A stretch of DNA of 63,221 nt, filler included, from Sandaracinaceae bacterium (GTDB taxonomy: Bacteria > Myxococcota_A > Polyangia > Polyangiales > JADJQN01), in NCBI GenBank assembly GCA_947483975.1. It is 5 parts of 5 records of this genome, joined end to end, with 100 filler letters (N's around TTAATTAATTAA, not from the genome) between each part and the next. Parts side by side here need not be neighbours in the genome. Positions count along the whole stretch, not along the records: positions 38,060 to 50,593 come from CANKOL010000131.1; 4 more parts are not named here. One strand, given 5' to 3'. A program made the translations under genes and the position numbers. Of this stretch, positions 36,498-49,240 are shown one piece after another. The notes beneath the pieces were generated by a model. It was not told where the DNA came from. It saw nothing but the letters and a program-made list of their open reading frames with translations, and did not search any database. Each line of letters begins with the position of its first letter. Position 1 is the first letter of the stretch.

Positions 36498-37959
36498 GTG
36501 TTCGAGGCGCTCGGCCGGCTAGCGCTCGCGCGGCGATGGACCGTCATCGTCGCGTCAGCGCTGGCGCTGGTCGGCTCGGGGCTCGTCATCGCGCGCGGGG
36601 GCGTACTGAGCTCCGGCGAGACGCACGGCACCGAGGCCGATCTCGGGCGTAAGTTGGTCGACGCCGAGCTTCACCTGCCCGGCGCGACGTCGTTCACCGT
36701 CGTCTTCTCGAGCGCGACGCTCTACGCCGATGACCCCGAGTTCGTCGACGCGATGCACCGCGCGCTCGCGCCGATTCGCGCGGACGCGCACGTCGCGTCG
36801 GTGCTCTCGGCGGACGACGCGCCGGACATGGTCGCCGCGCGCCTGCGCTCCGAGGACGCGCACCACGCGCTCGCGGTCGTCACGCTGAAGGACGCGTATC
36901 GCGAGGCCTCGCGGCTCTATCCGGCGCTGCGCGAGAAGCTGCGTCCGGGCCCGCTCTCGATGGCGATCACGGGGTACCTCGCGTTCCGCAGCGACCTCGA
37001 TCGCACGCTCGAGAAGGACCTGCTGCTCGCCGAGGCGGTGAGCCTGCCGCTGACGCTGCTGATCTTGCTGCTCGTGTTTCGCACGCTGGTCTCCGCGACC
37101 CTGCCCGCGTTCGTCGGGAGCCTGTCGGTGACGATGGGCATCGCCGGCGTGATGGCGCTCTCGCACGTGATGGACGTCGCGACCTATGCGATCAACGTCG
37201 CGTCGCTGATCGGGCTCGGCGTCGCCATCGACTACTCGCTGTTCATCGTCACGCGCTATCGCGACGAGCTCGCGCGCGGCGAGCCGTACGACCGGGCGCT
37301 CGTCACGGCGATGAACACTGCCGGGCGAGCGGTCGCGTTCTCGGGGCTCGCCGTCGGCGTCGGGCTCTCGGGGCTCGTGTTCTTTCAAGGCTCGTTCCTC
37401 GCGACGATGGGGCTCGCGGGCGCGATCGTCGTGCTGCTCGCGGTCGTCTTCGCGCTGACGTTCTTGCCGGCGCTGCTCGCGGTCCTCGGTCCGCGCATTC
37501 ACGCGGGGCGAGTGCCGTTCTCGCGCCGCGGTCCGGCGCAGGGCGGAGGGTGGCAGAGGCTCGCGCGCGCCGTGATGAAGCGCCCGCTGCTGGTGCTGCT
37601 GCCGACGCTGACCGTGCTCGTGCTGTTTGGCGGGCCGTTCTTGCACCTGCGCCTCGCGACGGCCGACGTGACGGTGCTGCCGCACAGCGCGGAGGCGCGA
37701 CATGGCTCGGATCTGCTCGCGGAGCACTTCCCCGACCAAGCCGCGAACCGCATCCTCGTCGTCGCGCAGTTTCCGCGCCTTGCTGCGCAGGACCACGGAT
37801 CGGACGACGGCGGCGTGCTGAACGAGCGACGCGCGCTCGCGCTCTACGACCGCAGCGCGTGGCTCAAGACGCTGCCCGGCGTGCGCACCGTCGAGAGCAT
37901 CGTCGACCTCGGCTCGATGTTCGATCGCGCCTCGACCGCCGCCGCCGCGACGACGCCGC
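36498..37959 (+). CDS. MMPL family RND transporter (3' truncated)
   Basis: IGLGVAIDYSLFIVTRYRDEL, TAGRAVAFSG, multiple TMs. Confidence 0.92.
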
Positions 37960-38059
37960 NNNNNNNNNNNNNNNNNNNNNNNNNNNNNNNNNNNNNNNNN
38001 NNNTTAATTAATTAANNNNNNNNNNNNNNNNNNNNNNNNNNNNNNNNNNNNNNNNNNNN
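37960..38059. other. Artificial contig linker
   Basis: N run + TTAATTAATTAA + N run. Confidence 0.99.
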
Positions 38060-39078
38060 ATCGCGTCGGCCTCTTGGGCGGCGCCGAGCAGCTCGCGCAG
38101 GCGCTCGCGGCGATCGGCCTCGGGCATCGCGAGCACGCGCGTCGAGTCGATCGTCAGCATCGGCAGCGGGCCGCTCGACACGACGGGCAGGTGCCCATCC
38201 CAGCGCTGCTGCATCCGGTACTGCAGCACCTCCGGCGTCATGCTCAGCCGCACGATCTCGTTCGCCTGCGCCTCGCCGCGCGCGCGGATCAGCAGCGAGT
38301 CCGCCTCACCGCGCGCCCGCTGACGCGCCGCCTCCGCCTCGCCGCGCGCCGCCGTGATCGCCTGGTCCGCCTCCGCGCGCGTCTGCCGCACGCGGTTCTC
38401 CGACTGGATGGCGCTCTGCGTCGCCTCGATCGCGCGGTTGATCGCGGCGACGACGTTGTCCGGAAGGCGCAGCGCGCTCGCGAACGTCAGCTGATCGATG
38501 ATGAAGCCGTCGGGCGAGAGGCGCGCGGTGATCAGGGCGAGCGCGTCGCGGATCACCTTGGTCTTGCCGGGGCCGTAGATCTCTTGCACGGGCAGCGCCG
38601 ACGCGACCTCGCTGATCGCCTCGCGCACGACGTTGCGCACATAGCCGTGGGCGAGCACGAGCACGTCGCGCTCACGGAAGCGCGAGTAGAGCTTCGGCGC
38701 CTTGTTTCCCTCGATGTGGAACGCGAGCCCGACGTCCGCGTTGATCGTCACGCCCTCGGACGACGCGAACGTGATCGACTCGTCGACGGGGCTGCCCTCG
38801 TTGATGTCGCGCGTCCAGACGATGTTCTGCACGTTCGTCGGGAACTCGATCACCTGCTCAGTGAGCGGGTTGTAGACGACCCAGCCCGTGACGATCGGCG
38901 CGTTCTGCACGCCGCGCTCCGAGCCCGCGAGCCGGATGCGAATGCCGACGTGCCCGGGCTCGACGCGCGAGCAGCTCGCCGAGCCGATGATCACGGCGAG
39001 CACCAGCACGACGACCGTGATGACGACGCTGATGATGCTGCCGCGGGAGGGGAGTGTGGTCGTCCGATAGGTGGTCAC
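38060..39078 (-). CDS. SPFH / prohibitin (band 7) domain protein (3' end at contig edge)
   Basis: N-terminal TM, VEPGHVGI, coiled-coil AEA..A..ARGEA repeats, RWDGHLP. Confidence 0.9.
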
Positions 39079-39144
39079 GCGGCCGACTATGGGCCGTGGG
39101 TGTGCGCGGGGGTAGCGGGTCGCGCTGGCAGCAGCGCCGCGCGC

Positions 39145-40128
39145 TCAGCGGTTGACGCCCGCCATGATCGCCGTCGGATAGCGCTCGCCCGCGGCGGCGC
39201 CCTTCGGCGCGAGGGCGTCGAGGCGCGTGAGCTCGTCGGCGCTGAGCGTCACCTCGAGCGCGCCGAGGTTCTCCTCGAGGTAGCGCACGCGCTTGGTCCC
39301 GGGGATCGGCACGAGGTCCTCGCCCTGCGCGAGCACCCACGCGAGCGCGAGCTGCGAGGGCGTGACGCCGCGCGCCTCGGCGAGCGCGGCGATCGCCTCG
39401 ACGAGCGCGAGGTTCTTGGCGAAGTTCTCGCCCTGAAAGCGCGGCGAGTGCCGGCGGTAGTCGTCCTCGGCGAAGTCCTCGTAGCGTCGGATGGCGCCCG
39501 TCAGAAAGCCGCGCCCGAGCGGGCTGTACGGCACGAAGCCGACGCCGAGCTCCCGGCAGGTCGCGAGCACGCCGTCCTCGGGCTCGCGGCTCCAGAGCGA
39601 GTATTCGGACTGCAGCGCCGTGATCGGGTGCACCGCGTGCGCCCTACGCAGCGTGTCGGCGCTCGCCTCGCTCAGCCCGAGGAAGCGCACCTTGCCCGCG
39701 GCGACGAGCCCCGCCATCGCGCCGACGGTCTCCTCGATCGGCACGCTCGGGTCCACGCGGTGCTGGTAGTAGAGGTCGATCGTCTCGACGCCGAGGCGAC
39801 GCAGGCTCGCGTCGCACGCCGCCCGCAGATACTCGGGGCGCCCGCTCACGCCGCGCACGCTCACGTCGGCGCGGTCGCGCAAGATGCCGAACTTCGTCGC
39901 GAGCACGAACCGCTCGCGCCGCCCGCGCATCGCCTTGGCGAGCAGCTCCTCGTTGTCGCCGAAGCCGTACATATCGGCGGTGTCGAAGAACGTCACGCCG
40001 AGGTCGAGCGCGCGGTCGATCGTCGCGAGCGACTCCGTCTCGTCGCGCCCGCCGTAGAACTCGGACATCCCCATACAGCCGAGCCCGAGGGCAGAGACTT
40101 CGAGCGCACCGAGCTTGCGGGTCTTCAT
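39145..40128 (-). CDS. Aldo/keto reductase
   Basis: [41 protein letters not shown]. Confidence 0.95.
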
Positions 40129-40228: not shown

Positions 40229-41455
40229 TCAGACCACCGGCAGGCACCGCAGCGGGCTCCCCGCGGGGTTCGGCGAGAGCGGCGGCTCGGCGGAGTCGAA
40301 CGGCTCGAGCACGAGGTCGAACACGCCGTGATCGAACGGGCGCCCCGGCGCCAAAGACAGCGGCACCAGGCGCTCGCGCAGGCCCTTCTTCTGCAATTCG
40401 AGCGCGCGATGGTGGCAATACGGGTTGTTCCCCGGGCGCCCGAAGAGCACGTGCGAGCTGCCGAGGCAGCCCGCGCGGCAGTCCTCTGCGTAGTAGCAGT
40501 CGGCGCAGAAGCCCCAGAGGTCCGAGGTGCCTCGCTCACGCGCGTAGCGCACGCGCGGGCTGCCGTCGTAGAGCGCCCGCAGGGACGTCTCGCGCACGTT
40601 GCCGCCGACGTACGCGCCCGACGTCATCGAGAGGCAGCCCTTGACCCCGCCGTCGGACTCGATCCCGAGGATGTCGCGCCCCGCGCGGCAGCCGGAGTGG
40701 TAGGCGCCCGGGCGGATCGACCCGCGGATCAGCCCCTCGAGCGGGCCGAAGTAGCCGACGTTGTTCCCAGGCCAGAGGCGCACGCCGCGCGCCCGCCCGC
40801 GCTCGGTGAGGTCCGCGAGCTTCGGCATCACCGTCAGCAGATCGTAGGGCTGCAGCAGCCACTCGGGATGATCCGCGGCGCCGCCCATCGGGAAGGTCAG
40901 CTGCACCTGCCACGCGTGACAGCGCGGCGCGATCACCGTGTCGAAGAGCCCGTCGAGGTCCGGGAGGCTGAGGCGGTTGATCTGCGTGTTGACGCACACC
41001 GGGACGCCCGCCTCGCGGAGGTTGTCGAGCGCGCGCACGCCCGAGTCGAACGCGCCCGGCACGCGCCGCAGCGTGTCGTGCGCTGGCTGCAGGCCGTCGA
41101 TGGACACCGACACGCTCTGCACGCCCGCGTCCGCCGCGAGCCGCGCGCGCTCGGGCGTCATCCCGCGCCCGGCCGTCGTCATCGTCACGGCGAGCCCCGC
41201 GCCGCGGAGCGCCCGCACGATGTCCGTCCAGCCCTCGTGCAGGTACGCCTCGCCGCCCATCAGCGTCACCTCGCGCGCGCCGAGGTCCGCGATCTGCGCG
41301 GCGACCTCGAGCGCCTCCGCCACGCTCAGCTCACGCTCGCGCGGCCGGCCAGCGCGCGAGCCGCAGTGCCCGCACGCGAGATCGCAGCGCAGCGTCAGCT
41401 CCCAGACCACGTACGCGGGGCGAGTGCCGTCGAGGCTCGCAGAGAGTCGGTCCAT
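40229..41455 (-). CDS. Radical SAM/SPASM peptide maturase, PlpX (splicease) / Y_X(10)_GDL-associated type
   Basis: [54 protein letters not shown]...[14 protein letters not shown]. Confidence 0.85.
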
Positions 41456-41540
41456 GGCAGCCAGTGGGCGCTTGGATAATTGCCGTGATGTTGACCTGCC
41501 TCAACTCGGTCGCTGGGCGCCCGCTGTTACCGTGGTCGGC

Positions 41541-41828
41541 ATGAGCCTCACGACCTGCGTCCACTGCGCGCGCCACGTCCGCGTCACCGAGACTCGCTGC
41601 CCGTTCTGCGAGGGTGATCTCGGCGCGACCACGCCTTCGGTGCTGGCGCGCGGCGTGCGCGCGGCCGTCGTCGTCGGCCTGCTCGTCGGCACCGGCGTCG
41701 CGCTCTCTGCCTGCTACGGCTGCCCGACGCCGGGCTGCTACGACAACGACTTCGGCCCGGACGACGCCTCGCAGGACGCCTCGCAAGACGCCACGGCCGC
41801 GCCCACGGACGGCGCCACGGTCGACTGA
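41541..41828 (+). CDS. Small Zn-ribbon lipoprotein, candidate splicease precursor
   Basis: CVHC...CPFC, hydrophobic stretch, lipobox LSAC followed directly by YGCP; divergent from the rSAM gene. Confidence 0.8.
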   Translation: MSLTTCVHCARHVRVTETRCPFCEGDLGATTPSVLARGVRAAVVVGLLVGTGVALSACYGCPTPGCYDNDFGPDDASQDASQDATAAPTDGATVD

Positions 41829-41927: not shown

Positions 41928-42200
41928 ATGCGCCCTGGCCGAACCAAGACGACGAGCTTCTCGCTCGACGACGCCACGCTCGCCAACCTGAAGGCGCTCG
42001 CGCGCCGCCGTCACCAAGGGAACGTCTCCGCGCTGCTCGCGGAGGTCGCCTCCCGCGAGGCGAAGTTCGCGGCCGCAGAGGCGTACTTCGAGAAGTACGC
42101 GATCCCGCCGCTGACCGACGACGCGGTCGAGCGCATCGAGGCCGAGTGGCGCGGCGAGCCGCTCCCCAAGCCAAAGGCCAAGCGGAAGCGCGCCGCCTGA
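41928..42200 (+). CDS. vapB: Ribbon-helix-helix antitoxin (VapB-like)
   Basis: TTSFSLD strand plus two helices (GNVSALL); stop overlaps the PIN toxin start. Confidence 0.8.
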   Translation: MRPGRTKTTSFSLDDATLANLKALARRRHQGNVSALLAEVASREAKFAAAEAYFEKYAIPPLTDDAVERIEAEWRGEPLPKPKAKRKRAA

Positions 42201-42571
42201 TGTTCACGTTCGACACGGGGATGCTGATCGCGCTCGAGCGTCGGAAGCGCCGCGCGACCGACGCCTTTCGCAACCTCGTGCGCCGCGGCTATCTGCCCAT
42301 CGTCCCTGCGGTCGTCTACGTCGAGTGGTGGCGCGGCCGCACCGACGTCCGCGAGGCGCTCCTCGCGGCTGTCGTCGTCGAGGGGATGCCGCCCGCGCTC
42401 TGCCGCGCCGCCGGAGAGGCGCTCGCCGCAGTGCGCGGGTCCACGTTGGCCGACGCGATCGTGATGGCCTCCGCCGCGCTGCGTGGCGGCGGGATCGTCT
42501 ACACGAGCGACGTGGACGACCTTCTGCGGTTGCAGCAGCACTTCCCGTCGGTCCGCGTGCTTGGGGTCTAG
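42200..42571 (+). CDS. vapC: PIN domain toxin (VapC-like)
   Basis: FDTG, VYVEWW, LADAIV, YTSDVDD acidic residues. Confidence 0.88.
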   Translation: MFTFDTGMLIALERRKRRATDAFRNLVRRGYLPIVPAVVYVEWWRGRTDVREALLAAVVVEGMPPALCRAAGEALAAVRGSTLADAIVMASAALRGGGIVYTSDVDDLLRLQQHFPSVRVLGV

Positions 42572-45653: not shown

Positions 45654-45993
45654 CGCAAGACTTCCGAACGTTTGGCGCGCCGGCACCCCGAAGCACCATC
45701 GCAGCGCGGGAGGACGAACGAAGGCGACCGTCCCGTTCCTGCTCATGCCCGACCTCAGCCGCGCAGCGCGCTCCCCCTCATCGCCTCGAGCAGCGGAGGG
45801 CGGGTGACGAGCGGAGCACCCGTGCGCTCGACGAGCGACCTTCGCTCAGGCCGTCTGAGCGGCGCTGCGCAGAACCTCGCGAGTGGATGCGCCACGGGTG
45901 GCGAGCACGTCACCCGGCCGACGCGGTCACGTAGGGAGCCCCGCAGACCCGCGGCTGGCCTCGGCGGCGCCGTGGTCACGCAGGTGTCACGCA

Positions 45994-46201
45994 GCCCCCC
46001 GCGTCGCCCGCCTGATCTCCGCGCGCGTCATCGGCCCACGCAGATACGACATCGCCCAGCGCGGCTGCAGCAGGCACGCGCCCGTCTCGCTCTGCGCGTC
46101 GCGCACCACGAACCAGCGCGCCGCGAGGTCGCGCAGCACGCGGTCGAGGGCGTCGTGCTGCGCGCCACGGAGGCCACCGAGCGCCTCGACGACGCGCTCG
46201 C
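45994..46201 (-). repeat. Duplicated 3' end of the HerA-like ATPase gene (direct repeat copy A)
   Basis: 208 bp matching 47859-48066 with 3 mismatches. Confidence 0.95.
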
Positions 46202-46249
46202 CTGCTTTGTCAGGACCACGATGTGCGACGACCGCGCTATCGCTCCATT

Positions 46250-46278
46250 TTGACAACGCACCAAACGATAGCTATAAA
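46250..46278 (+). promoter_or_regulatory. Near-consensus sigma70 promoter, probably leaderless
   Basis: TTGACA (46250-55), 17 bp, TATAAA (46273-78); ATG 7 nt downstream; inverted repeat GCTATCG/CGATAGC flanks the -35. Confidence 0.8.
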
Positions 46279-46285
46279 ACCAATC

Positions 46286-46831
46286 ATGGCCCGCGACGAA
46301 CGACGGATCCTCGACGGCGCGCTCATGCGCGAGGCGCTGCGCGCGCTCGACGCGCACCTCGAGAAGCCGCTGCACCTCATCATCGGCGGCGGCGGCGCGA
46401 TGGTCCTGGCGTACGCCATCCCGCTGCACACGCAGGACGTGGACGCCTTCCCGGTAGAGCCGGGCCAGCTCGCCGCGGTCCAAGAGCGGGCGAGCCTCGT
46501 CGCCCGCGAGCTCAACATCGCGCCGGACTGGCTGAACCAGCACTTCGAGACGTTCACGTTCGTCCTGCCCGGTGACTACGCCTCGCGCCTGCGGAGCGTC
46601 TTCCAAGGTCAATGGCTGCGGGCGGACGCGCTGGGTCCCGAGGATCTGCTCGTGATGAAGTGCATGGCCGGGCGCGAGAAGGACCGCCCTCACGCCCGTC
46701 GCCTGATGCGGGAGCGGTGCGACCTCGACATCGTCGATCGGCGCCTCTCGGAGCTCGCGCAGAAGGGCGTCGCCAAGGCCGCGCAGGCCTGTGACTTCTT
46801 CGACGACCTCAAGGAGGAGGTCGGCGCGTGA
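46286..46831 (+). CDS. Nucleotidyltransferase (DUF6036 / AbiEii-like) putative toxin
   Basis: IIGGGGAM...TQDVD, DWLN, EDLLVMK...REKD motifs of Pol-beta-like NTases. Confidence 0.8.
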   Translation: MARDERRILDGALMREALRALDAHLEKPLHLIIGGGGAMVLAYAIPLHTQDVDAFPVEPGQLAAVQERASLVARELNIAPDWLNQHFETFTFVLPGDYASRLRSVFQGQWLRADALGPEDLLVMKCMAGREKDRPHARRLMRERCDLDIVDRRLSELAQKGVAKAAQACDFFDDLKEEVGA

Positions 46832-47817
46832 CGCGGCTGCTCCTGCACGCGCCGACCGAGGACGAGCTCGCGCGTATGTATTGGGAGCTCGCCAAGCTCG
46901 GCGCTCCGGGCGCGGGGGCTCAACGACCATGGGAATACGAGCCCACGTCGCGCGAGGAACTGACCTGCCTCGCCGCCGAGATGTGCCGCTACGACGCGCG
47001 GCTCCTCACGATCCTCGTCTCGTGGCTGGGGCAGCGCTGGGCAGAGCTCAACCCCTTGAGGCTTCGCGTCGAGATGCGCCGTATGCGCGCGCCGCAGGCG
47101 CTCTGCGTCGTGCTGGCGTTCGTGCGGAGCGCCGCCGTCGACCCCGAGCTTCGCAGGCTGGTCGCCTACGTCTCCGCGGGCGTTCTACCCGCTCGACCCG
47201 TCGAGCGTTTCTTCTTCGACAGCGAGCGCCCCGGCAGCCGCCTCGCCGAGCGGAACCTCGGTCGCAGCCTCATCGAGTACTCGCGCTGGGGCTTCCTAGG
47301 CCTCGAGCGTCCCCAGACCGACGTCTTTCGGAAGACGGACGTCGGGCGCTATGACCGCGCGAGCCGCGTCGACCTGCTGCGCCGCCTCGCCAAGCAGCGC
47401 GGCGAACTCACCCTGGCGACCTACGTCGCTGAGCTCGACCACGCTGTCAGCCGCCCGCAAGCCGTCAAAGACGCGCGCGCGGCGGGGCTCCTGCTTCGCG
47501 GCACCAAGCGCGGCGGCAAGTGGCTCTGGCCGGTCCCGGGCCTGCGGGTCACCCTCGGCCCTGCGCCGCTCGTCGCGCACACCGCGAGGGGCGAGGCCCG
47601 CGCAGACCAGCTCGCCGACGAGCAGGGCACGCTGCTCTCCGAGCCCGACGAGCACGGCTGGATCGGGGTGCGCGCCGGGGGGCGCAGCTGGCGCTTGAAG
47701 GCGGCGAGCCTGAGGGTGATCGACGCCGACGCAGCCCTCCCGCGCGCCCCGCGCAGCGACGAGCCTGCTGCGCGTCGTCGGCCGAAAGCGGCGAAGCTCG
47801 CTGTCGTCTCCCGATAG
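46828..47817 (+). CDS. Hypothetical partner of the NTase with winged-HTH-like segment
   Basis: GTGA overlap with the NTase stop; LTLATY...VSRPQAVKD...GTKRGGKW resembles a wHTH. Confidence 0.7.
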   Translation: MTRLLLHAPTEDELARMYWELAKLGAPGAGAQRPWEYEPTSREELTCLAAEMCRYDARLLTILVSWLGQRWAELNPLRLRVEMRRMRAPQALCVVLAFVRSAAVDPELRRLVAYVSAGVLPARPVERFFFDSERPGSRLAERNLGRSLIEYSRWGFLGLERPQTDVFRKTDVGRYDRASRVDLLRRLAKQRGELTLATYVAELDHAVSRPQAVKDARAAGLLLRGTKRGGKWLWPVPGLRVTLGPAPLVAHTARGEARADQLADEQGTLLSEPDEHGWIGVRAGGRSWRLKAASLRVIDADAALPRAPRSDEPAARRRPKAAKLAVVSR

Positions 47818-47851: not shown

Positions 47852-49240
47852 CTACCGCGCCCCCCGCGTCGCCCGCCTGATCTCCGCGCGCGTCATCGGC
47901 CCGCGCAGATACGACATCGCCCAGCGCGGCTGCAGCAGGCACGCGCCCGCCTCGCTCTGCGCGTCGCGCACCACGAACCAGCGCGCCGCGAGGTCGCGCA
48001 GCACGCGGTCGAGGGCGTCGTGCTGCGCGCCACGGAGACCACCGAGCGCCTCGACGACGCGCTCGCGGTCGGCGTCGGTCTGCAGGCGCCCGAGGCACCA
48101 GAGGCCCGCGTTGCCGAGGGCGCGGTAGTCGAGGTCCATCGGGTTCTGCGTCGCGAGCACGCAGCCGACGCCGTACGCGCGCGCTTGCTTCATCAGGGCG
48201 ACGAGCGGGCGCTTCGTCGGCGGGTTCGCGGGGTGCGGCGGCAGATAGCCGTAGACCTCGTCGAAGACGACGAGCGCGCGGAGGCGCCCGGAGCCGGGCA
48301 GGCTGCGCACCCACGTCAGGACCTCCTCGAGCAGCAGCCCGAGCACCAGCGTGCGCTCGTCCTCGTCGAGGTGCGCGACGCTGACGATCGTCGCGGGCGT
48401 CTTGCCGTCGGTCGGCGTCATCCACGCGCCGACGTCGAGGCTGACGCCCTGCCGCCACGACTGAAACGACGGCGCCGCGAGCAGCGTGTTGAGCCGCGCC
48501 GCAAGCTCGCCGCGCGCGCGCTGCGACAGAAACGCCTCGAGCGGCAGCGCGCCGATCGTGTCGATGGGCGGCTCGAGCACGTCGGCGACGAGCGCGCCGA
48601 GGTCCGCCGTCTGCCCCGCGCGCAGGCGCCGCTCGGCGAGCACCGACAGCAGCGCGTGCTCGCGGCTGCGTCCCGGCTCGGCGTCGCGCCCGAGCAGGCG
48701 CAGCACGAGCGACACCGTCGCGCCGAGGGAGGTGCGCGCGCGCTCGACGTCCGTGTCCCAGAGGGTTGAGCGCCGCTCGAGCGACGACAGCAGATGCAGC
48801 AGCTCGCCGGCGTCCGCGCCCGGCGTCAGCACGCGCACGCGCGTCTTTTGGGCGAAGTCCGCGAGGTCCGCCTCGCCGAGGTGCCAGCACTCGAGCCCGT
48901 GCCGCCGCGCCTCTGCGGCCGCCTCGACGAGCGGCGCGTCGGCGACGCCGTCCTCGTCGTCGGGCGCCGCCTCGACCCAGGGCGCGAGGGCGTCGGCCGA
49001 GAGCGTCGGCAGCGCGAGCGCGAGGTTCGGCAGATCGCCCTTCACGTCGAGCATCAGCACCGGCACGCCCGCGCGCAGCGCCTCCTCGACGAGCACCGTG
49101 ACGAGCCCCGTCTTGCCCGAGCCGGACATCCCGACGACCACGCCATGCGTGACGAGGTGATGCGCCGGCAGGGCGAGCGGCCCCAGCTCGGTCGATCCAT
49201 CCAACGAGCAACTGCGACCGAGCTGGAGCGTGGGGTTCAT
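47852..49240 (-). CDS. HerA/FtsK-superfamily (DUF87/DUF853-like) ATPase
   Basis: HGVVVGMSGSGKT Walker A, DVKGD, VFDEV Walker B, KQARAYGVG..LATQNP. Confidence 0.9.
   Translation of the reverse strand: MNPTLQLGRSCSLDGSTELGPLALPAHHLVTHGVVVGMSGSGKTGLVTVLVEEALRAGVPVLMLDVKGDLPNLALALPTLSADALAPWVEAAPDDEDGVADAPLVEAAAEARRHGLECWHLGEADLADFAQKTRVRVLTPGADAGELLHLLSSLERRSTLWDTDVERARTSLGATVSLVLRLLGRDAEPGRSREHALLSVLAERRLRAGQTADLGALVADVLEPPIDTIGALPLEAFLSQRARGELAARLNTLLAAPSFQSWRQGVSLDVGAWMTPTDGKTPATIVSVAHLDEDERTLVLGLLLEEVLTWVRSLPGSGRLRALVVFDEVYGYLPPHPANPPTKRPLVALMKQARAYGVGCVLATQNPMDLDYRALGNAGLWCLGRLQTDADRERVVEALGGLRGAQHDALDRVLRDLAARWFVVRDAQSEAGACLLQPRWAMSYLRGPMTRAEIRRATRGAR
47859..48066 (-). repeat. Direct repeat copy B (within the ATPase 3' end)
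   Basis: Matches 45994-46201 at offset 1865 bp. Confidence 0.95.

Follow-up and report, generated by a model that had tools for sequence, protein, structure and literature searches.

A gene pair in the window, by which we mean the whole 63,221-nucleotide stretch of Sandaracinaceae bacterium DNA that was analysed (filler included), is predicted to form a two-gene, Y-less spliceotide-type system whose product would be a lipopeptide with a first residue that is both lipid anchor and keto-amide. The splicease reaction removes C8H9NO (135.07 Da) and forms a keto-amide. Judging from motifs and conservation, tyramine splicing at C58-Y59-G60 of the precursor is highly probable, and LSAC is quite likely to be a functional lipobox; that the site is spliced in the cytoplasm and the same Cys then lipidated, so that one molecule carries both modifications, is given a probability of roughly 0.45. 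The system appears to be one subtype of a family, by its sequences widespread in Myxococcota, that combines a Zn ribbon, a hydrophobic helix, a lipobox Cys and Tyr-Gly sites, and whose usual form has distal, repeated YG; this family had been missed by the sequence-only reading that preceded the analysis.

The enzyme ORF, P0002 (40229..41455, minus strand; 408 aa, radical SAM/SPASM, splicease clade), and its partner, the putative precursor P0001 (41541..41828, plus strand; 95 aa), diverge from an 85-bp intergenic region (41456..41540) in which no sigma-70-type promoter consensus was found. ORF calls and coordinates agree with the sequence-only reading on this divergent pair, its 85-bp spacing and all the motifs described. 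The absence of an adjacent PqqD/PlpY gene, also claimed there, holds as well, the neighbours being an aldo-keto reductase and an RHH/PIN pair; PF05402 (PqqD/PlpY-type) was not found in the host genome, an 81%-complete assembly. The locus lies on contig C131 of the host genome. The pair is not an assembly artefact, since in each of two other studies, both of lake metagenomes, the two genes lie together on one contig. Contig X6 shows 6 differences from the window locus, and X10 shows 64, without gaps. Change between strains is mostly synonymous among the differences listed, 16 of 19 in the enzyme and four of five in the precursor falling on third codon positions, counts that exclude 40 further strain differences.

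The best NCBIfam matches of P0002 are TIGR04103 (465.3 bits; curated cut-off 725) and TIGR03913 (440.1 bits; cut-off 591.75), with TIGR04133 next (141.2 bits; cut-off 425), and its Radical_SAM and SPASM Pfam matches are both above cut-off. Membership of the splicease family, as earlier proposed, thus divided: the two expected families did rank highest and trees support placement in the clade, but membership of TIGR04103 or TIGR03913 itself fell away, both scores lying below the curated cut-offs. For calibration, a true TIGR03913 member scored 439 bits on TIGR04103, less than the 465 of P0002, and a true TIGR04103 member 414 on TIGR03913. P0002 is 47% identical to each of the two references, over 389 aa in the case of the Nostoc type I enzyme; the locus of this TIGR04103 reference (853 bits) is a full type I set, in which a Y-like gene accompanies a Nif11 precursor that has LYGLPP at its end. 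In trees, P0002 falls in the group that holds both references, apart from more distant SPASM enzymes; the references are family members rather than the characterised enzymes, and PlpX itself was not among the sequences compared. We regard P0002 as splicease-like by clade and context, and as belonging to neither curated family. The CxxxCxxC radical SAM cluster motif (C24, C28 and C31; 41363..41386, minus strand) and the seven Cys of the SPASM region (PF13186; C256, C274, C317, C320, C326, C330 and C347; 40415..40690, minus strand) are all intact, and these ten cluster Cys are invariant in 56 aligned enzymes. The confident structure model (pLDDT 87.6) matches SPASM/twitch maturases, its nearest solved folds being SkfB, PqqE, SuiB and a sactipeptide maturase; neither sequence nor fold search found a solved splicease structure.

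P0001 opens with a four-Cys Zn ribbon (C6xxC9...C20PxC23; 41556..41609, plus strand) that is the proposed enzyme-binding module on the cytoplasmic side. After R37 and R40 come 17 uncharged residues (41-57) predicted to form a hydrophobic helix that ends in the lipobox L-S-A (41661..41711, plus strand; mean hydropathy 2.2 over 16 residues). There follows C58-Y59-G60 (41712..41720, plus strand), in which conservation and motif statistics point to the lipobox Cys as X of a predicted XYG splice site, within the run L55-S56-A57-C58-Y59-G60-C61-P-T-P-G-C66. According to the strain comparison and the structure model, the mature part (41721..41825, plus strand) consists of a strain-variable segment, residues 61-70, with two Cys and then an acidic, low-confidence tail. 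The segment directly after YG (41721-41750) varies among close strains; the ribbon and helix barely do. The idea that X would be the lipobox Cys itself is supported by a large subfamily in which YG is conserved directly after this residue. YG follows [AG]C at only 3 of 2084 interior sites of the host genome and in none of its 280 heuristically called lipoproteins, which makes the C58-Y59-G60 arrangement more than chance. The suggested CPTPGC disulfide loop did not hold up: the four closest homologous proteins read SPTPCC, and 56 of 120 Cys-Tyr-Gly (CYG) precursors, among the matches listed, have no Cys within 12 residues after the site. The loop was rejected as a conserved feature, close variants keeping two Cys after the site at other spacing.

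The subfamily was collected with a profile of 12 precursors (8 CYG, 4 C-A-YG), which gave 182 matches, the best 120 of them listed. Conservation of YG in precursor homologues, whose loss the sequence-only reading had named as evidence against itself, was found throughout: CYG occurs in 117 of 117 new homologues among the matches listed (116 by pattern, 1 by eye), a count that is partly circular because the search was seeded with CYG and C-A-YG rows. A second YG is missing from 107 of the 116 new CYG homologues among the matches listed. The non-circular test of the subfamily is the linkage of precursor to enzyme. A search with precursors only, over 301 genomes of the order, found a match of either subtype in 132 (best 14 candidates scored per genome). 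CYG is present at all of the best 30 precursor loci, and at 27 of them the enzyme lies no more than 1.5 kb away (two of the matches are cut by the locus edge, and the enzyme search had already yielded four of the loci; without the unpublished genome G122 the count is 26/29). Two of the other three have an enzyme ~3.6-4 kb away, bringing the total to 29 of 30 within ~4 kb; in the third genome (locus L143) there is no enzyme within ~9 kb of the CYG precursor, and a close CYG-type enzyme is encoded elsewhere. Kin are not independent, and no p-value is therefore attached to the linkage. No enzyme was found within 2.5 kb of a metagenome CYG gene, L136.

Residues after the site point the same way. 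A/G and then P follow YG in 85/120 and 79/120 CYG precursors among the matches listed, compared with 217/306 and 243/306 distal sites, a match that makes CYG most likely the target of the enzyme. Cys is never X at distal sites, and its invariance in CYG hence calls for a second role or another cause. A subtype precursor occurs in the cultured species Sorangium cellulosum (WP_129344297.1), which would make the subtype testable in a native host. In two genomes of one genus a 1134-aa gene stands between CYG precursor and enzyme (L170:10206-13607 and L171:10111-13512). A metagenome scan with the window's precursor gave no match, and a DNA pattern scan for CYG precursors gave 17 loci, one of them in the right frame.

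Beyond the subfamily, a close homologue of the enzyme was found in 18 of 41 genomes searched, host included. A ribbon ORF with YG stands at 88 of 110 enzyme loci, some of which overlap or repeat, and 134 distinct precursors were obtained. With the YG filter lifted, 129 of 137 ribbon ORFs still have YG; of the eight misses, five run off a contig end and two appear to be frameshifted. Gly follows 288 of 335 Tyr in the mature parts of the YG-filtered set, and a Cys after 11 uncharged residues is found in 120 of the 134 precursors and, by eye, in 11 of the 14 misses, leaving three without; in one precursor row (L029) parsing picked the wrong Cys. Most of the 134 have distal, repeated YG, six have C-Y-G and five C-A-Y-G. 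Cys is X at six of 318 sites, all six being lipobox sites and none distal. The host genome encodes a second splicease-like enzyme, L002 (C451:2342-3475; 51% identity, other subclade, near a contig end), for which no second ribbon precursor was found in the assembly. Ten distant splicease-like enzymes (P0045, P0052, P0053, P0054, P0061, P0075, P0083, P0104, P0130 and P0154) are fused to a helix, a lipobox-like Cys and a repeated-YG tail, and are candidate self-splicing lipoprotein precursors; the seven of these fusions placed in the tree form a more distant group.

The sequence-only reading had also suggested that the Zn ribbon serves as recognition leader, and this gains indirect support from fusions: the precursor-ribbon profile matches 17 of 155 related enzymes, 14 at the C-terminus, two at the N-terminus and one internally. 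The 14 C-terminal tails sit on TIGR03913-like enzymes, and P0002 itself carries no ribbon. Spliceases are described as being activated when PlpY or the RhaA leader is fused to their C-terminus (PMC11414181). Generic four-Cys ribbons of the host genome also match the profile weakly, and homology of the enzyme-fused to the precursor ribbons is for that reason likely rather than proven. The ribbon Cys are invariant in 57 aligned precursors, and the ribbon is modelled with pLDDT ~80; its best fold matches are RanBP2/NZF fingers, none of them at E<=0.001. On a Tropicibacter plasmid (L122:2219-3841) and in P0010, a ribbon at the enzyme N-terminus lies upstream of trypsin-like and M23 peptidase genes, and no precursor was identified there.

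Several statistics argue that the Cys is a lipoprotein anchor. A/G stands at -1 in 117 of 120 family precursors against a background of 25%, and the make-up of +2 resembles that of the host's heuristically called lipoproteins (p=0.18) and differs from that of interior [AG]C (p=2e-37). All 120 CYG precursors among the matches listed fit a PROSITE-like lipobox; the strict form fits 39 of these 120, most having Met at -2. P0001 itself matches [LV][ASTVI][GAS]C with LSAC, and C58 is invariant in 57 aligned precursors. The n-region is net positive in 110 of 117 relatives, and their tails are acidic; between ribbon and helix of P0001 the net charge is 0, though R37 and R40 flank the helix. PF11617 was counted by eye on ~72 of the 120 CYG matches listed. 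Searches of the host genome gave, above the cut-offs, 8 matches for lgt (two of them pieces of one frame), 2 for lspA and 2 for lnt; two tandem lspA adjoin an lgt (C343:3458-5512), and over this and other contigs lgt occurs at about seven loci and lnt as two genes. The length of the signal is unusual. It would be 57 residues in P0001, and lipoprotein signal peptides are typically given as 16-26 (PMC8689077); no clear precedent for so long a signal was found in the literature searched. The enzyme fusions may show that long cytoplasmic heads before such motifs recur, those too being candidates.

These features suggest an order of events. P0002 has no signal and needs Fe-S clusters and should thus act in the cytoplasm, where the ribbon, emerging first from the ribosome, would fold and dock on the enzyme in place of a PlpY or RhaA leader. 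Basic residues before the helix and the acidic tail would put YG outside after membrane insertion, and splicing would then have to precede export. The helix would insert N-in/C-out with the ribbon remaining inside, Lgt would add diacylglycerol to the thiol, LspA would cut Ala57|Cys58, and Lnt would acylate the amine. A free amino-ketone is unstable, and Lnt, encoded in the host genome, would cap it. In the splicing reaction as reported, X keeps its side chain and the bond that precedes it (PMC10533398, PMC9811515); here these are the thiol and the bond before Cys, the features that Lgt and LspA use (PMC8689077). The product would be a lipopeptide, short and acidic, that presents an electrophilic keto-amide on the surface of the membrane, and would most likely inhibit envelope or membrane proteases, a role suggested by the protease inhibition reported for tested spliceotides (PMC11626197). 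The main doubt is that Lgt, LspA and Lnt may reject a ketone next to Cys, together with the 57-residue signal; co-translational insertion could also outrun the enzyme, and no example of a splicease accepting Cys as X was found in the literature searched.

The first of these doubts leads to a different outcome, in which the site is spliced but the keto-amide blocks or inhibits Lgt/LspA, so that spliced and lipidated forms are alternatives and the spliced form is held by the uncut helix. The ketone would lie one atom from the side chain to be lipidated and beside the bond that LspA cuts (pathway as outlined in PMC8689077), and the presence of more than one copy each of lgt (several), lspA (two) and lnt (two) might serve self-protection or provide a copy dedicated to the system. 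Such multiplicity may not be specific to this system, however, and neither the thiol nor lipobox positions -3 to -1 would be altered by splicing, with Thr/Leu/Ala at -4/-3/-1 nearly invariant in the CYG subfamily; we consider this trap or switch unlikely. A peptide that is spliced and never lipidated, its helix being an uncleaved anchor or an enzyme-binding leader helix and its Cys kept for some other reason, would explain why the Cys lies at a median position of 57-60 in the family, far beyond the median of 22 in called lipoproteins (called with a pattern that covers residues 1-42), and a leader helix is known to activate spliceases (PMC11414181). Against it, the -1 and +2 statistics match lipoproteins, the same helix-Cys-YG-repeat tail recurs as a fusion on distant enzymes, and the precursors, the P0001 leader included, showed no likeness to Y proteins, which together make it distinctly improbable.

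Splicing itself may be questioned on the enzyme side. The CYG enzymes form one fully supported clade with diagnostic residues, among them H73-x-G75 after the GGE motif (41231..41239, minus strand), which reads R-x-D in distal-site enzymes and is fixed in all eight members, all full length, of the P0002 sequence cluster. All 25 enzymes of the clade have H73, G75 and S267, and Phe for W332, a residue that is Trp in 99% of distal-site enzymes. P0002 shares H73, G75 and S267, has Gly332, departs at five other diagnostic columns and, Gly332 aside, differs at 13 columns whose conservation is 85% or more, on a long branch (0.44). V271 was rejected as a diagnostic residue, six of the seven other cluster members having Ile. 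FastTree grouped P0002 with C-A-YG enzymes, and IQ-TREE, given additional CYG rows, placed it as the sister of the CYG clade (support 99/93 and 98/90); dropping ten diagnostic columns left the placement without resolution, and the alternative was not rejected (p-AU 0.116). CYG in the window's pair may thus reflect shared descent or convergence.

Such departures in CYG enzymes, more so in P0002, could mean other radical chemistry, in which the thiol intercepts and a Cys-Tyr or Cys-backbone thioether, chain cleavage or some other product results. SPASM enzymes also form thioethers, and the nearest folds include SkfB and a sactipeptide maturase. On the other hand, Tyr-Gly and its A/G-P context are kept as at distal sites, and many X residues are tolerated by PlpX (PMC5995677, PMC9811515), so a changed reaction is judged unlikely. 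The long branch and many departures would also fit a window copy that is not a working pair, in which the enzyme is decaying or has been redirected and its neighbour is a small lipoprotein of the usual kind, as would the lack of any match at E<=1e-80 in a same-genus genome that is 94% complete. This is very improbable given the ten intact cluster Cys, mostly synonymous strain differences among those listed, eight full-length cluster members and a precursor-enzyme pairing that holds across the order.

Splicing followed by lipidation of the same residue would set the system apart from its known relatives. Its enzyme is 47% identical to a member of TIGR04103, and the family's distal sites read like the LYG core of type I spliceotides (PlpX/PlpY/PlpA, PcpXYA; TIGR04103, IPR026482); unlike these, it has neither a Y gene nor a Nif11/double-glycine leader, but a ribbon, membrane helix and lipobox, with Cys as X. 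The two-gene layout and a leader that presumably activates the enzyme recall the binary Y-less spliceotides (RhaX/RhaA, RcsX/RcsA, RasX/RasA; Scott et al. 2022), among which a disulfide is present in the cores of RcsA and RasA (PMC11626197). According to the supplement of PMC11414181, the leaders of types II, III and V are Y-like and are cleaved at a double glycine, whereas the leader of P0001 has no Y likeness. TIGR03913 GDL-motif/DUF1843 systems share 47% enzyme identity and the same ribbon, there at the enzyme C-terminus and accompanied by short DUF1843 precursors that lack a signal, in contrast to the precursor-borne ribbon of the window. YG occurs in two of five copies of the DUF1843 precursors of TIGR03913-type enzymes at L120 and L121, the rest having YA or no such site. 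By family name, TIGR04133/TIGR04134 likewise pairs a radical SAM/SPASM gene with lipoproteins, but P0002 is far below the TIGR04133 cut-off and P0001 has no TIGR04134 match. As in canonical bacterial lipoproteins (Lgt/LspA/Lnt), there are basic residues, a hydrophobic helix, an L-S-A-C lipobox and a disordered tether; the folded 23-residue ribbon before the helix, the 57-residue signal, Tyr-Gly at +2/+3 and the lack of a folded mature domain in the window's copy are not canonical.

No ribbon-lipobox splicease substrate is described in the titles and abstract openings searched, which lay outside most subscription papers and imply no absence from print. The distinctive feature of this spliceotide-type system is the splice site on the anchor Cys; Scott 2022, with 27 tested and 939 predicted systems (PMC10533398), may already include this type of precursor and predict Cys as X. 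What spliceotides finally become in their native hosts is stated to be unknown (PMC9811515), and a lipid-anchored product would give a defined place to look, the membrane fraction, and would bring its own handle. Should a single Cys carry the two modifications, this would be a new anchor chemistry and would couple backbone splicing to Sec export, with Lgt and LspA handling a 57-residue signal whose head is folded and whose bond at +1/+2 is not a peptide bond. Carried by the precursor in some systems and by one or the other terminus of the enzyme in others, the ribbon would represent a recognition module new to radical SAM maturases. A more tentative and rather doubtful proposal is that the widespread myxobacterial subfamily and its own enzyme clade make gene-encoded lipopeptides with an N-terminal S-diacylglyceryl-cysteine keto-amide, a single residue modified by two machineries in separate compartments. 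With the lipid as its side chain, the keto-amide residue would make these lipopeptides mimics of the lipoprotein N-terminus that could inhibit LspA and Lnt of prey or rivals. The keto-amide alpha carbon is described as enolising (PMC10533398), so the peptide could also be freed of its lipid by beta-elimination, leaving as a reactive enone.

The surroundings of the pair offer some further observations. On the precursor side lies an RHH and PIN toxin-antitoxin-like pair (41928-42571), with further small pairs that may run up to 42881; it was rejected as a component of the system, as the X10 contig diverges after 41838 and the pair is not adjacent there. On the enzyme side (36498-40128) are an aldo-keto reductase, an SPFH/Band 7 protein and an MMPL transporter cut by an N gap, with no sign of membership. 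Part of a P-loop ATPase gene (47852-49240), the stretch that codes for its C-terminus, occurs twice ~1.9 kb apart (45987-46256 and 47852-48128), and the two copies flank a two-gene unit (46223-47817) in what looks like an insertion with duplication.
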